Assembly: GCA_035633495.1 (NCBI GenBank)
Contig: DASQEU010000143.1
Length of the DNA stretch: 64,000 bases
Source: Mycobacterium sp.
GTDB taxonomy: Bacteria > Actinomycetota > Actinomycetes > Mycobacteriales > Mycobacteriaceae
Reading direction: 5' to 3' (one strand)
In this document: positions 37,941 to 42,506 of the stretch, one piece after another
How positions within the stretch are numbered: position 1 is the stretch's first letter
How the letters are laid out: each line of letters starts with the position of its first letter
Program-made: the position numbers and the translations under genes
Notes under the pieces: generated by a model
Databases searched by the model: none
What the model saw: only the letters and a program-made list of their open reading frames with translations
Told to the model about the DNA's origin: nothing

Positions 37941-39962
37941 ATGCGCATCGCACGGGCTGCCCGCCTCCTGAGCCTGCTTCTCGCGGTACTGACCGTGGGC
38001 GCACTGCTGGCGCCGAACCTCCCGATGGCCGGCGCCGTGCCCCCGTCTCGGCTGACCGACTACGTCACCGACGACGCGGGAGTGTTGGACGCCAGTGCCC
38101 TCAGCGACGTGAGTGGAGCCGTCGACGACCTCTACACCGCCCGCCGGGTTCGGCTGTGGGTGGTCTACGTCGACAGCTTCTCCGGCCAGACGGGAACGGC
38201 CTGGGCGCAAAGGGCCATGCAGATCAACAACTTTCAGCCCGACCAGGATGCGATCCTCGCGGTCGCCACCCAGGACCGCGACTACGCCCTGCTGGCGGGC
38301 ACCGCGATCCTGAGCGACTCCGATCAGGCGAGTCTTCGCCGAAACGAGGTGGAACCGGCGTTGCGGCAAGGCGACTGGGCGGGTGCCGCGACCGCCGCTG
38401 CCACCGGGTTGAAGAACGACGGCACCTCGACCGGGAGCGTCTCCTGGGTCGGTGTCGTCATCTTCCTCGCGATCATCGCCCTGGCGGTCCTGGCGTTGGT
38501 GATGTGGCGCGGGCGCAGGCGACGCAAGCGCCGCGAGGCGGAGTTCGCCGCCGCGCAGCGGGTCGACCCGGCAGATCCCAACGCGCTGGCGTCGCTGTCC
38601 CCCGACGCACTCGACGACCTATCGAAGTCGGTCGTCGTCGAAGTCGACAATGCCGTACGCACCAGCGACAACGAGCTGACCTTGGCGGTCGAGGAGTTCG
38701 GCGAGAGAGACACCGCCCCCTTCGTCCAGGCCGTGTCAGGAGCGAAAACGGCGCTCGCGCAAGCGTTCAACGTCCGCCAGATCCTCGACGACACCGTCCC
38801 CGAGACGCCTGCGCAGCGCCGCGATCTGCTTACCCGCGTCATCGTGGCGGCCGCCAGGGCCGACGACGAACTCGAGGCGCAACGCGAGGCCTTCGGCAAG
38901 CTGCGCGACCTGATCATCAATGCGCCGGACCGACTGGACACCCTCACCCAGCAGATGGTCGACCTGACGGCGCGCATCGAACCCGCCGGGCAGACACTCG
39001 CGGCACTGCACTCGCAGTTCTCCGAGACCGCGTTGGCATCCGTGGCGGGCAACGTCGACACCGCCAAGCAGCGCTTGTCGTTCGCCGACCAGAACATCAC
39101 CAAAGGCCGCGCGCTCGTCGCCAAGCCGGCGGGTAGCCAGGGCGGGCTCGTCGACGCGATCCGGGCAGCGGAATCCGCGTTGGGCCAGGCCCGCACCTTG
39201 CTCGACTCCGTCGACAGCGCGTCCACCGACATCAACCGGGCGGTGGCCGCGCTCCCGGCGGCGATCGCCGACATCCAGAACGGCATCAACGCCGCTGCCG
39301 CCCAACTCGCGCGGGGCAACGTCAGACGCGCTTCCGAGTTGACCACGGCGCGCGACGCAGCCGCGATGGCCGTCGCGCAGGCGCAGAACGCGGGTACCTC
39401 GAATCCGCTGGGCACGTTTACGCAGCTGACGCAGGCCGACGCGCAACTCGACCGGCTGCTGGCGGACATCGGTGACGAACTCGAGACAGCGGCACGCTTG
39501 AATCGAGCGTTCGATCAGGCACTGTTCAGCGCTCAGTCGCAGGTGCGTTCGGTGTCGGACTTCATCGACACCCGCCGCGGCAGCGTCGGACCCGAGGCGC
39601 GCACCCGGCTGGCGGAGGCCGTGCGTCAGCTGGAGGCCGCGCAGGCCCTCAAGTCGACCAACCTCTCGGAAGCCATCCAGCACGCCAACGGTGCCGCGAT
39701 GCGGGCGGCGCAGGCTCAGTCCATGGCGAACGCCGACGTCACTGCGGCCCAGCGCCAGTACACCGGGCGCTACAGCGGCCCGGGTGGGTTCAGCGGCGGC
39801 GGCAACACCGGCGCCATCCTCGGCGGCATCCTCATCGGCAACATCCTGTCGGGCGCACTGCGCGGCGGGATCGGCGGCAGCGTCGGTGGCGGTGGCGGCT
39901 GGAGTCCAGGATCGTTCGGCGGCTCCGGCGGCGGCTGGGGCGGTGGCGGCGGCCGCTTCTAG
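37941..39962 (+). CDS. TPM-domain membrane protein with coiled coil and Gly-rich tail (Rv2345-like)
   Basis: Signal peptide, TPM domain ([17 protein letters not shown]), one TM, a long helical region, and a GGGRF terminus. Confidence 0.9.
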
Positions 39963-39979
39963 CCCTCCCCCCTTTTCTG

Positions 39980-40040
39980 GCGCGAGCGTGCGTGTTTGCG
40001 GCCGACACGCCGCGTCGAGATCGGAGTTCACGCACGCTCA
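39980..40040. repeat. Left 61-bp hairpin-forming inverted repeat flanking the DUF559 gene
   Basis: 53/61 identical to the reverse complement of 41015-41075. Internal stem GAGCGTGCGTG/CACGCACGCTC. Confidence 0.92.
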
Positions 40041-40925
40041 CGCCACGCGCGAACTGGCGATCTCCCACTCGATTCGCCGCACCATGTCCCACGGCCGACG
40101 CCGGACGTCATCCGACACGATTGACGTCACCGACCAGTTCATCTCCTGCAGCGCCGCGCGCTTCTGTCTGTCTCGTCGCAGGCTTTCCGGGTCGCTGTGC
40201 CAATCGAATCCGTCGTATTCGACGGCCACCCGCTGATCCGGCCAGGCGAAGTCGAGCCGCCACAACCGCCCGCTCCGGTCGATCAACTCGTACTGCAGCT
40301 CAGGCATCGGCAGTCCTCCGTCGATCATGACCAGCCGCGCCTCACTCTCCATCGGCGACTCGGCCTCACCTGCGGCGAGCTCGATCAACTCGCGAACCTT
40401 CACGATTCCTCGCCGTCCGGTCTGGTTCGCGGCGGCCCGCAACAGGCCGCGGCGCTCGCAGGTGCCGCTGCGCAACGCCGCATCCAGAGTCGCCAACGCC
40501 CGGGGACGACGGAGCCCACGGGCCACCTCGACCGCGGTCCACGCCGGCGCCGTCGCAGGCCTGCCCTCGATCTCACTCAGCGGCGCTCCGTCGCGACGGT
40601 GCACGAATAGACCGTCGGAGTTTCGCAGTTGATGCCGGGCGGGATTCAACACGTGGAGGTCGTCGACGTCTTCGGTGTCGAAGCCGTGGGCCGCCCCCGC
40701 GGTGGACAGGCAGATGGCGACGGGTTCGCCTGCTCTGAGGTCGAGACCTCGCAGCCGGATGAGCGTGTCGATCTCGTCGTGGCTGTAGACCCCGGGCCAC
40801 ACCTTGAGCACGTCGCCGCGTTGGATCCTGGTGTCGAGTTGACTGCGGCTGAAGATCGTCAGCAGTTGGGCGGATGTCGCTACGCCACCTTGCCGTTCGA
40901 AGAGAACGTCGAGATCGTTTGGCAC
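40038..40925 (-). CDS. AbiEi-like/DUF559 (Vsr-like PD-(D/E)xK) predicted endonuclease
   Basis: GGVATSAQL..WPGVY N-terminus. AESPMESEARL..PELQY..RLDFAWPDQRVAVEYDG..H..DRQK C-terminal nuclease-fold motifs. Confidence 0.85.
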   Translation of the reverse strand: MPNDLDVLFERQGGVATSAQLLTIFSRSQLDTRIQRGDVLKVWPGVYSHDEIDTLIRLRGLDLRAGEPVAICLSTAGAAHGFDTEDVDDLHVLNPARHQLRNSDGLFVHRRDGAPLSEIEGRPATAPAWTAVEVARGLRRPRALATLDAALRSGTCERRGLLRAAANQTGRRGIVKVRELIELAAGEAESPMESEARLVMIDGGLPMPELQYELIDRSGRLWRLDFAWPDQRVAVEYDGFDWHSDPESLRRDRQKRAALQEMNWSVTSIVSDDVRRRPWDMVRRIEWEIASSRVA

Positions 40926-41014
40926 GCAGACGATCGTCGGTCACTTCGTGGCCTTCAGCGGGTGCCCGCACGGCATTTGGGGATGAACAAGCGACTGTGG
41001 ACACCTCCGAGCGC

Positions 41015-41075
41015 TGAGCGTGCGCAAACTCGGATTGCGGCCCGGCATGTCGGCCGCAAACACGCACGCTCGCGC
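41015..41075. repeat. Right 61-bp hairpin-forming inverted repeat flanking the DUF559 gene
   Basis: Reverse complement begins GCGCGAGCGTGCGTGTTTGCGGCCGACA, a 28-nt exact match to 39980-40007. Confidence 0.92.
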
Positions 41076-41087
41076 AGGAGGGGAGGG

Positions 41088-42473
41088 CTAGGTGCCCTTG
41101 AGACGCACCGCCAGGTAGTCCGAGACCGCGTCGATCGCCACGCGCTCCTGCGTCATCGCGTCGCGTTCACGGATCGTCACCGCGTGGTCTTCCAGCGAGT
41201 CGAAGTCCAGCGTCACGCAGTACGGCGTGCCGATCTCGTCCTGCCTGCGGTACCGCCGCCCGATAGCGCCCGCATCGTCGAACTCGACGTTCCACGACCT
41301 GCGAAGCTCTGCCGCGAGGTCCTTGGCCTTGGGCGACAGGTCGGCGTTGCGCGACAGCGGCAGCACCGCAGCCTTGACGGGTGCGAGCCGTGGGTCGAGC
41401 TTCAGCACGGTGCGCTTGTCGACGCCACCCTTGGCGTTGGGGGCCTCGTCTTCGTGGTAAGAGTCGACGAGGAAGGCCATCAACGACCGGGTCAGGCCGG
41501 CTGCGGGCTCGATGACGTACGGCGTGTACCGGGTCTCGGTCGCCTGGTCGTAGAACGACAGGTCCGTGCCGGAATGCTTTGAGTGCGTGGACAAGTCGAA
41601 GTCGGTCCGGTTGGCCACGCCTTCGAGCTCACCCCACGGGTTGCCTTGGAAGCCGAACTTGTACTCGATGTCGACCGTGCGGTCGGCGTAGTGCGACAGC
41701 TTCGCCTTCGGGTGCTCGTACAGCCGAAGGTTGTCGGCGTTGATGCCGAGGTCGACGTACCACTGCAGTCGGGTGTCGATCCAGTACTGGTGCCATTCCG
41801 CAGCGGTGGAGGGTTCGACGAAGAACTCCATCTCCATCTGCTCGAACTCCCGGGTGCGGAAGATGAAGTTGCCGGGAGTGATCTCGTTGCGAAAGCTCTT
41901 GCCGATCTGGCCAATTCCGAACGGCGGCTTGCGTCGCGACGTGGTCACGACGTTCGCGAAGTTGACGAAGATGCCCTGCGCCGTCTCCGGGCGTAGGTAG
42001 TGCATGCCCTCTTCGGTCTCGATCGGTCCGAGGTAGGTCTTCAGCATCATGTTGAAGTCGCGCGGCTCGGTCCACTGGCCCTTGGTGCCGCAGTCCGGAC
42101 ACACGATCTCCGTCATCGGCACGGCGTCGGGGTCGTCGAGACCCTTCTTGAGCGCGTACGCCTCCTGCATGTGGTCCTGCCGATGACGCTTGTGGCAGTT
42201 CAGGCACTCGACCAGCGGGTCGTTGAACACCTCGACGTGTCCGGAGGCCACCCACACCTCGCGCGGCAGGATGATCGCGCTGTCGAGGCCGACGACGTCG
42301 TCGCGCCCAGTGACCATCGACCGCCACCATTGCCGCTTGATGTTTTCCTTGAACTCGACGCCCAGTGGGCCGTAATCCCACGCCGACTTGGTGCCGCCGT
42401 AGATCTCACCGGATTGATAGACGAGGCCACGGCGTTTCGCGAGATTGGCAACGGTGTCGATGATGGAGGCCAC
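41088..42473 (-). CDS. glyS: Glycine--tRNA ligase (alpha2 type)
   Basis: [59 protein letters not shown]. Confidence 0.97.
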
Positions 42474-42506
42474 GGGTGAACAGCGTAGCGGGCGACTGCC
42501 GCTCGA

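Follow-up and report, generated by a model that had tools for sequence, protein, structure and literature searches.

A predicted nuclease gene in a Mycobacterium sp. contig (DASQEU010000143.1) lies between two inverted copies of a 61-nt hairpin, in the gap separating a gene for a TPM-domain membrane protein from glyS, and we questioned whether nuclease and hairpins belong to one genetic unit or simply share a gap. The window, meaning the whole 64,000-nt stretch that was analysed, is C143:22610-86609 of a 5.28 Mb assembly in 192 contigs (genome G000), and positions below are those of the window unless another contig is named. A first-pass annotation, made from the sequence alone, had proposed a nuclease-plus-terminal-hairpin unit that is self-propagating or spreads repeats of the REP (repetitive extragenic palindromic) kind. 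Comparative tests support this proposal, in which mobilisation itself is what we infer from sequence. The stretch from about 39963 to 41087 forms a single conserved genetic unit, an insertion into the TPM-glyS junction, and it belongs to a large actinobacterial family in which each lineage's nuclease is paired with its own dispersed hairpin, located mostly after stop codons. We consider it probable that the unit reflects a partnership like that of REP repeats and RAYTs (REP-associated tyrosine transposases), built on a different enzyme, in which the nuclease pairs with its own hairpin and would mobilise it.

A nuclease gene framed by inverted hairpins

The framed gene (40038-40925, minus strand) encodes a 295-aa AbiEi-like/Vsr-like nuclease, as assigned from the open reading frame (ORF) list, Pfam, AlphaFold2 and Foldseek. 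The left hairpin (39980-40040, plus strand; 59.0 bits with nhmmer, among the best of 47 copies of what we call the type-I repeat) and the right hairpin (41015-41075, minus strand; 55.5 bits), which lies upstream of the gene, about 90 nt from its start codon, are complementary at 53/61 positions (87%), and their outer 28 nt are identical. Either arm alone forms a hairpin (-41 to -46 kcal/mol, z -2.1 to -4.4 by folding). The 3' foot of the left arm supplies the framed gene's TGA stop, read as TCA at 40038-40040, which is the final triplet of that arm. The two arms and the stop codon at the left foot were thus present just as the first-pass annotation had described them.

Outside the hairpins lies a second, fully complementary (100%) inverted repeat, CTAGCCCTCCCC, at 39959-39970 and 41080-41091, which includes the stop codons of both the TPM gene (39960-39962) and glyS (41088-41090). 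Its inclusion of both stops had been noted before, at a length of 11 nt that we correct to 12 nt. The neighbours had also been called convergent, and here the earlier description fails: only the TPM gene is convergent with the framed gene, glyS being on the framed gene's own strand. The left arm of this outer repeat lies in a tract at 39959-39979 (plus strand) that consists of CTAG followed by the pyrimidine-rich CCCTCCCCCCTTTTCTG and is part of the inserted block; the right arm lies in its purine-rich mirror AGGAGGGGAGGG, followed by CTAG, at 41076-41091 (plus strand). Each hairpin shares the orientation of its outer neighbour, the left one beginning 17 nt past the TPM stop and the right one 12 nt past the glyS stop. 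Read along the nuclease gene, the order of the unit is therefore a pyrimidine tract, a hairpin, two ATCCACAG boxes, the nuclease gene, an inverted hairpin with the TGA in its foot, and a purine tract.

The framing exceeds chance, because the inverted repeat flanking this gene scores 58 bits (E ~6e-12), while flanking inverted repeats of at least 30 bits occurred in only 2/400 random genes of similar length from the same genome (180-350 aa), namely the framed gene and another carrying the same hairpin family.

Occupied and empty sites

Among genomes of the same genus, every TPM-glyS junction that bore the gene had both hairpins, and none of the junctions in which the TPM gene directly adjoins glyS had a hairpin. 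Empty sites of this kind had been suggested as a check on the unit, and in several of those found the TPM and glyS stops overlap within a single CTAG or CTAA. One of them (L020) reads CTTCTAGGCGCC and lacks the outer tracts. Since CTAG stands on both sides of the block in the window, the pyrimidine and purine tracts belong to the insertion.

A second site, locus B, gave a similar picture: all 6 occupied genomes had both hairpins, and the empty genomes had none, except for one solo copy and one half-hairpin scar. The scar, in genome G016 (L188), consists of half a hairpin, the purine tract and TTA (GCGCACGCTCGCGGGGGTGGGTTA) and resembles the remains of a lost unit. The window genome was dropped as an example of an empty locus B, since a contig break falls there (C86 start, C133 end). 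These two contig ends are among several that lie at or near locus B or paralogues of the AbiEi-nuclease gene (the others being C192 end, C171 start and C110 end), and many public Logan contigs with AbiEi-nuclease proteins are only 1.03-1.15 kb long, which suggests that assemblies break at the flanking repeats.

Hairpin positions are fixed to the nuclease gene

We assessed the geometry of the unit in 80 loci from named Mycolicibacterium, Mycobacterium and Mycolicibacter genomes, 75 of which had both flanks available. Type-I hairpins stood on both sides in 60/75 of these loci, and in those 60 the upstream hairpin occupied -152 to -92 from the start codon, leaving a constant spacer of about 91 nt, and the downstream hairpin started on the last base of the stop codon. 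The distance from hairpin to neighbouring stop varied (8-45 nt), and the outer tracts differed among genomes, with the two tracts mirroring each other within each element. At the TPM-glyS junction the unit was found in both orientations (39 loci vs 8), the minority orientation being that of one clade. In seven named genomes, a short conserved element, CATATTCCTTGACGGGAATA(C/T)GT, was also seen between the unit and the TPM gene (L090, L097, L100, L104, L116, L120, L123).

The nuclease gene behaves more like a RAYT, with a single copy passed on mostly vertically, than like a fast-moving insertion sequence (IS). Distances among TPM-glyS nucleases correlated weakly with those among the glycyl-tRNA synthetases (Spearman 0.22), and near-identical nucleases in distant hosts, which were looked for at this junction as a sign of horizontal transfer, were not seen.

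The framing hairpin belongs to a dispersed family

A genome-wide search with the 61-mer, also suggested in the first-pass annotation, recovered a dispersed family: iterated nhmmer found 47 copies of the type-I hairpin (~60 nt), 47/47 of them intergenic. The repeat comprises a conserved 5' half, CGCGAGCGTGCGTGTCTGCGGSCGACACGCCG, then a variable segment, then a conserved closing foot, GCGCACGCTCGCG. Its copies are placed with respect to gene ends. Convergent gene gaps hold 23/47 of them vs a background of 17% (p=7e-7), in tandem gene contexts 16/19 are oriented like the upstream gene (p=0.004), and 5' of 39/47 there is a gene end, from which a pyrimidine-rich tract separates the copy (median distance 22 nt). 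TAA stops are enriched upstream of the copies (12/36 vs 9% genome-wide). The outer stem was too conserved for compensatory changes to show in a covariation test, and no Rfam family matched the window hairpins.

Besides single copies, the genome contains gene-less inverted doublets of ~153 bp (C44 66521/66613, C58 26183/26275 and C135 6337/6430). It also contains a second single-gene cassette framed by type-I hairpins and situated between convergent genes (C125:9149-9876; L194 350-1077), whose 182-aa product combines a membrane segment at its N terminus with a restriction-endonuclease domain of the Mrr-like type (PADLOC ZorD/mREase_IV-like matches). The pyrimidine tracts 5' of many type-I copies show short tandem duplications (C134:10675-10720, C76:1014-1060, C44:66673-66720, C56:53950-53992), some of which repeat part of the hairpin's opening bases, TCCGCGAGC, much as if its 5' end had been copied a second time.

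Each nuclease clade has its own hairpin

In a maximum-likelihood tree the nucleases separate into clade I and clade II with 100/99 support, and protein clade and hairpin type vary together. Clade I (59-83% identity to the window protein) is framed by type-I variants only, or by none; clade II (50-57% identity) is framed only by a hairpin of the form GCGAGCAGACGCAAAA...TTTTGCGTCTGCTCGC, or by none. One subclade carries a third hairpin variant, GCGAGCGCTCA...TTGTACG. Flank clustering places clade I at more than 10 distinct sites and clade II at a minimum of 7.

The pairing extends to more distant relatives. Flanking hairpin inverted repeats of at least 40 bits were present at 5/15 paralogues in the window genome, all five of different sequence, against ~0/398 controls; the significant flanking of paralogues that the first-pass annotation had made a test of its proposal was thus found, with each paralogue bearing a hairpin of its own. 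An interim view that the paralogues are unflanked arose from seeking the type-I hairpin alone and was abandoned. Of the five paralogue hairpins, one also forms a dispersed family of its own. The distant paralogue at C1:55945-56969 (L195 246-1270; 27% identity) is framed by a different 66-nt hairpin, TAGCGATTTCGGCGCG...CGCGCCGAAA, of which more than 20 copies, complete or partial, are dispersed in the genome, and a sister paralogue on C147 has a related inverted repeat. The window genome's own clade-II gene (C108:17416-18324) has an intact clade-II-type hairpin upstream and a decayed one at its stop, and scored as lacking an inverted repeat because of that decay. In five other genera, homologues (42-50% identity) lie between unrelated hairpins, which are likewise scattered through the host genome.

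The clade-II hairpin, with the pattern GCGAGCAGACGCAAA, is probably TRIT, the Tuberculosis Rho-independent terminator motif, whose properties it matches; Rfam contains no TRIT family. The original description of TRIT (Gardner et al. 2011, PMC3152330) is of a conserved palindromic hairpin found at gene ends and only in Mycobacterium; TRIT was later proposed as an RNase III substrate and linked to RNA 3'-end processing (PMC13714241). Outside Mycobacterium, the pattern GCGAGCAGACGCAAA is all but missing from the family's 33 other genera. A hairpin of the clade-II type is present in intergenic DNA of M. tuberculosis, as seen in primer 1219PrF3 (PMC4155686); no clade-II gene from the M. tuberculosis complex was among the best 120 matches. 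The TRIT papers found discuss RNA roles only and describe no associated gene or spreading mechanism, and a full-text literature search returned no paper linking DUF559, AbiEi or MTES_1575 proteins to TRIT or to flanking hairpins.

TRIT-type copies also occur at the junction studied here. In L016 (G080) and L036 (G015), where the unit is missing from the junction, the gap from stop codon to stop codon holds a lone TRIT-type hairpin; therefore, the junction attracts both hairpin families. In L037 (G013), at least 3 tandem ~60-nt units, each starting CTAGCGGTGATCGCGAGGGCGGCTGAAAGCC, lie beside the glyS stop.

Hairpin abundance follows the cognate gene

Hairpin copy number follows the presence of the cognate nuclease clade, both in a first set of 71 same-genus genomes and in a replication set of 343 further genomes used for the TRIT-type test only, with the caveat that all of these statistics ignore kinship among related genomes. 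In the first set, type-I pattern matches had a median of 24.5 in genomes with a close clade-I gene vs 1 in those without (p=1.4e-6), and at least 11 TRIT-type half-sites were present in 37/39 genomes with a clade-II gene vs 3/32 without (Fisher p=3e-14). Two genomes illustrate the extremes: G001, with clade I only, has 36 type-I and 0 TRIT-type matches, and G002, with clade II only, has 0 type-I and 52 TRIT-type matches, a double dissociation of gene clade and hairpin type. In the replication set, the median number of TRIT-type half-sites was 29 with the gene vs 8 without (p=5e-19; odds ratio 9.9 at a threshold of 11), and the clade-II gene occurred in 0/74 TRIT-poor genomes.

An AbiEi-like module fused to a Vsr-like nuclease

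Residues 1 to ~190 of the framed protein form an AbiEi-like DNA-binding module, for which the top Foldseek match was the AbiEi antitoxin 6Y8Q and which PADLOC AbiEi models match over residues 10-170 (E=6e-8). The last ~100 residues are a PD-(D/E)xK nuclease domain of the Vsr/DUF559/MTES_1575 type. In an AlphaFold2 model of high confidence (pLDDT, the per-residue confidence score, 94.9; pTM, the predicted template-modelling score, 0.90), this domain retrieved the catalytic domain of I-Bth0305I (3R3P), Vsr (1CW0, 1VSR) and a DUF559 structure (3HRL). The 3R3P and Vsr-like matches had template-modelling (TM) scores of 0.67-0.77 on the target, and I-Bth0305I is the closest solved structure by sequence too. 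Pfam matches to the nuclease domain fell under their cut-offs (PF18741, MTES_1575: E=1.3e-7, 32.0 bits, cut-off 38.2; PF04480, DUF559: E=0.05, 13.9 bits, cut-off 20.6), and homologues carry precomputed PF09407 and PF18741. Among homologues down to 27% identity, E193, Q211, D225 and E236 are invariant and D238, H243 and D252 are at least 90% conserved. The Vsr-like nuclease fold that the first-pass annotation had attributed to DUF559 is borne out for this protein by structure matches and conserved catalytic residues.

Searches of the framed protein with Pfam, NCBIfam and by fold returned only AbiEi-like and Vsr-like domains and no known transposase class. The Y1/RAYT transposase domain (PF01797) had no match in the whole genome, and control genomes did give matches. 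The description of the unit as one lacking a DDE or HUH transposase therefore holds for both the protein and, as far as PF01797 is concerned, the genome. No AbiEii nucleotidyltransferase partner adjoins the gene, whose sole neighbours are the TPM gene and glyS. The nuclease gene is under purifying selection, because dN/dS (the ratio of nonsynonymous to synonymous substitution rates) is 0.07-0.20 and 78/80 ORFs are intact. The family is large, with 17,955 clusters at 50% identity (E<=0.001), and its members are named DUF559, PDDEXK, AbiEi-domain or hypothetical proteins in databases.

Upstream boxes and neighbouring genes

Between the right hairpin and the start codon lie a distal box, GTCCACAG (40995-41002, minus strand, at about -77), and a proximal box, ATCCCCAA (40977-40984, minus strand, at about -59), the latter a variant of ATCCACAG. 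Across the 80 named loci, ATCCACAG-like boxes peak at -77 and -59 from the start, and they are kept both in clade II and in other genera, whose homologues have entirely different hairpins. The ATCCACAG boxes are probably a promoter or operator of the nuclease gene.

The TPM gene (37971-39962, plus strand, start approximate; TAG stop) was identified by Pfam PF04536 (E=3e-18) and encodes a membrane protein with a Gly-rich C-terminal tail. The tail arises from GGC/GGT repeats (39860-39960), which also produced a spurious weak Rfam match to a prion pseudoknot. On the other side, glyS (41088-42500, minus strand) encodes a class II glycyl-tRNA synthetase (Pfam PF00587 and PF03129).

A probable RAYT/REP-like partnership built on a different enzyme

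The features above resemble those of REP/REPIN-RAYT systems (REPtrons; REPINs being REP doublets forming hairpins). In both, a single-copy, mostly vertical gene is flanked by inverted hairpin copies; further copies of the flanking repeat, single or in inverted doublets, are scattered through that genome; and every gene lineage has a repeat of its own, whose abundance follows the gene. The enzymes are different, RAYT being an HUH Y1 transposase (PF01797), whereas the unit here encodes an AbiEi-like and Vsr-like PD-(D/E)xK protein in a genome with no Y1 gene. Unlike REP sequences, the hairpins here sit tight against stop codons, have a polar pyrimidine tract and number tens rather than hundreds of copies.

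In the partnership that we favour, the AbiEi-like module would recognise the lineage-specific cognate hairpin, the Vsr-like domain would then nick or cut DNA, and repair or replication would copy the hairpin, and occasionally the entire unit, to sites at gene ends. A TA-containing target is hinted at by the surplus of TAA stops and by the CTAG and CTAA junctions. The nuclease gene would be kept throughout as a single, mostly vertical copy under purifying selection, with the ATCCACAG boxes probably controlling its expression. A broader claim, to which we give slightly less than even credence, is that AbiEi-Vsr proteins drive an unrecognised class of mobile or repeat-spreading element in which a PD-(D/E)xK nuclease, in place of a DDE or HUH enzyme, recognises its lineage's hairpin and promotes its copying to gene ends, and that this process generated TRIT in Mycobacterium and analogous hairpin families across Actinobacteria.

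Several observations weigh against the partnership. Target-site duplication, clear in the window, does not generalise: other genomes with the unit at the same site have mixed stops (TAA, TAG and TGA) and variable tracts and do not reproduce the window's CTAG duplication, so a consistent target-site duplication is doubtful. The framing is not exclusive to the nuclease, since type-I inverted pairs also frame other genes (the Mrr-like nuclease gene on C125, and dtd with a membrane protein gene on C58). In the replication set, 45/101 TRIT-rich genomes had no clade-II match at the strict cut-off of 1e-110. This is partly an artefact, because the cut-off misses 6/33 known clade-II carriers in the overlap set; hairpins may nevertheless persist or spread without the nuclease gene. 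Two genomes depart from the co-occurrence, G092 with 10 type-I matches and no clade-I gene, and G091 with a clade-I gene and only its two flanking hairpins, and the co-occurrence tests are not independent of kinship among the genomes compared. Finally, bacteria are not known to have a mobilising enzyme that consists of a PD-(D/E)xK nuclease only.

Alternative explanations

The alternative that survives best, although we think it unlikely, is that the unit is a passenger cassette: hairpin pairs would be moved by a different agent, for instance a host enzyme or a transposase not yet recognised, and the nuclease would be their commonest cargo. The pairs framing the Mrr-like gene and dtd with its membrane protein gene fit this explanation, as do the empty ~153-bp inverted doublets and the many TRIT-rich genomes without a strict clade-II match. 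Random capture, however, would not give a fixed geometry, with the stop codon in the foot and a ~91-nt spacer, at more than 10 sites in several genera, nor a strict pairing of clade and hairpin down to ~30% identity. The analysis turned up no other candidate mobiliser, and a Y1 transposase is lacking from the genome.

Far less probable is that the hairpins are independent RNA elements at the 3' ends of the two neighbours, acting like terminators or as RNase III sites. In favour of this, each hairpin points the same way as its outer neighbour and lies 12-17 nt past that neighbour's stop, the 39/47 copies with a gene end on their 5' side follow the same pattern, and TRIT has been linked to RNA 3'-end processing (PMC13714241). 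Incidental framing by such elements was rejected in view of the empty sites and the gene-fixed geometry: gene-less TPM-glyS and locus B sites have no hairpins (the exceptions at locus B being the solo copy and the scar noted above), and hairpin positions are fixed to the framed gene and not to the neighbours. The chance that both neighbours bear a copy is only ~1e-4 for each gene, and still this arrangement is met with at many sites. The dispersed copies could have a role in RNA alongside a nuclease-hairpin partnership.

Least probable of all is a defence or toxin-antitoxin-type gene, in which an AbiEi-like regulator is joined to a nuclease effector, the hairpins and boxes are only operators or insulators, and the genomic copies are functionally unrelated: the N-terminal module does match AbiEi by fold and PADLOC models, AbiEi proteins autoregulate via inverted repeats, and the second framed gene encodes an Mrr-like, defence-type nuclease, but an AbiEii partner is absent beside the gene, the conserved candidate operator is the ATCCACAG box pair and not the lineage-specific hairpins, and both the dispersal of hairpins at dozens of gene ends and their gene-following abundance are left unexplained.

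Relation to other known systems

Type-I hairpins share with TRIT the GCGAGC...GCTCGC foot and the gene-end position. TRIT has been described as an RNA terminator or RNase III substrate, whereas the hairpins here have an associated nuclease gene. The catalytic fold is that of I-Bth0305I and Vsr-like homing endonucleases, which show that a Vsr-like nuclease can serve a selfish mobile element; homing endonuclease genes also share with the unit the existence of occupied and precisely empty alleles. I-Bth0305I, however, is intron-encoded and without flanking hairpins, and the unit described here is free-standing between host genes, fused to an AbiEi-like module and framed by repeats. The AbiEi antitoxin of type IV toxin-antitoxin systems (6Y8Q) is alike in the fold of the first ~190 residues; the AbiEi/AbiEii system differs by its AbiEii toxin partner, in place of which the protein here is fused to a nuclease domain.

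IS elements with their MITEs (miniature inverted-repeat transposable elements) and mobile insertion cassettes offer a further parallel, as single-gene units with long terminal inverted repeats, and the ~153-bp gene-less doublets, the hairpin pairs with other cargo and the occupied and empty alleles are consistent with that parallel. Unlike IS elements, the unit has no DDE, HUH, serine or tyrosine transposase and apparently no consistent target-site duplication, and it is present as one copy per clade per genome, with old and largely vertical inheritance.

Implications for mycobacterial and actinobacterial genomes

Mycobacterial gene-end hairpins of the TRIT kind have been known since 2011, and their origin and spread are unexplained in the literature searched; AbiEi/DUF559 proteins are among the most numerous uncharacterised paralogues of actinobacterial genomes. 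Our findings join the two, in that hairpin families are tied to cognate nuclease genes both by framing and by an abundance that follows the gene. If the nuclease does spread its hairpin, the unit would amount to a REP/RAYT-like system whose enzyme is unrelated, and a PD-(D/E)xK nuclease would join the short list of repeat-spreading enzymes. The broader claim, if true, would assign a function to ~18,000 protein clusters at 50% identity. Hairpin spreading by the nuclease would also account for assembly breaks and variable gene-end junctions in these genomes.

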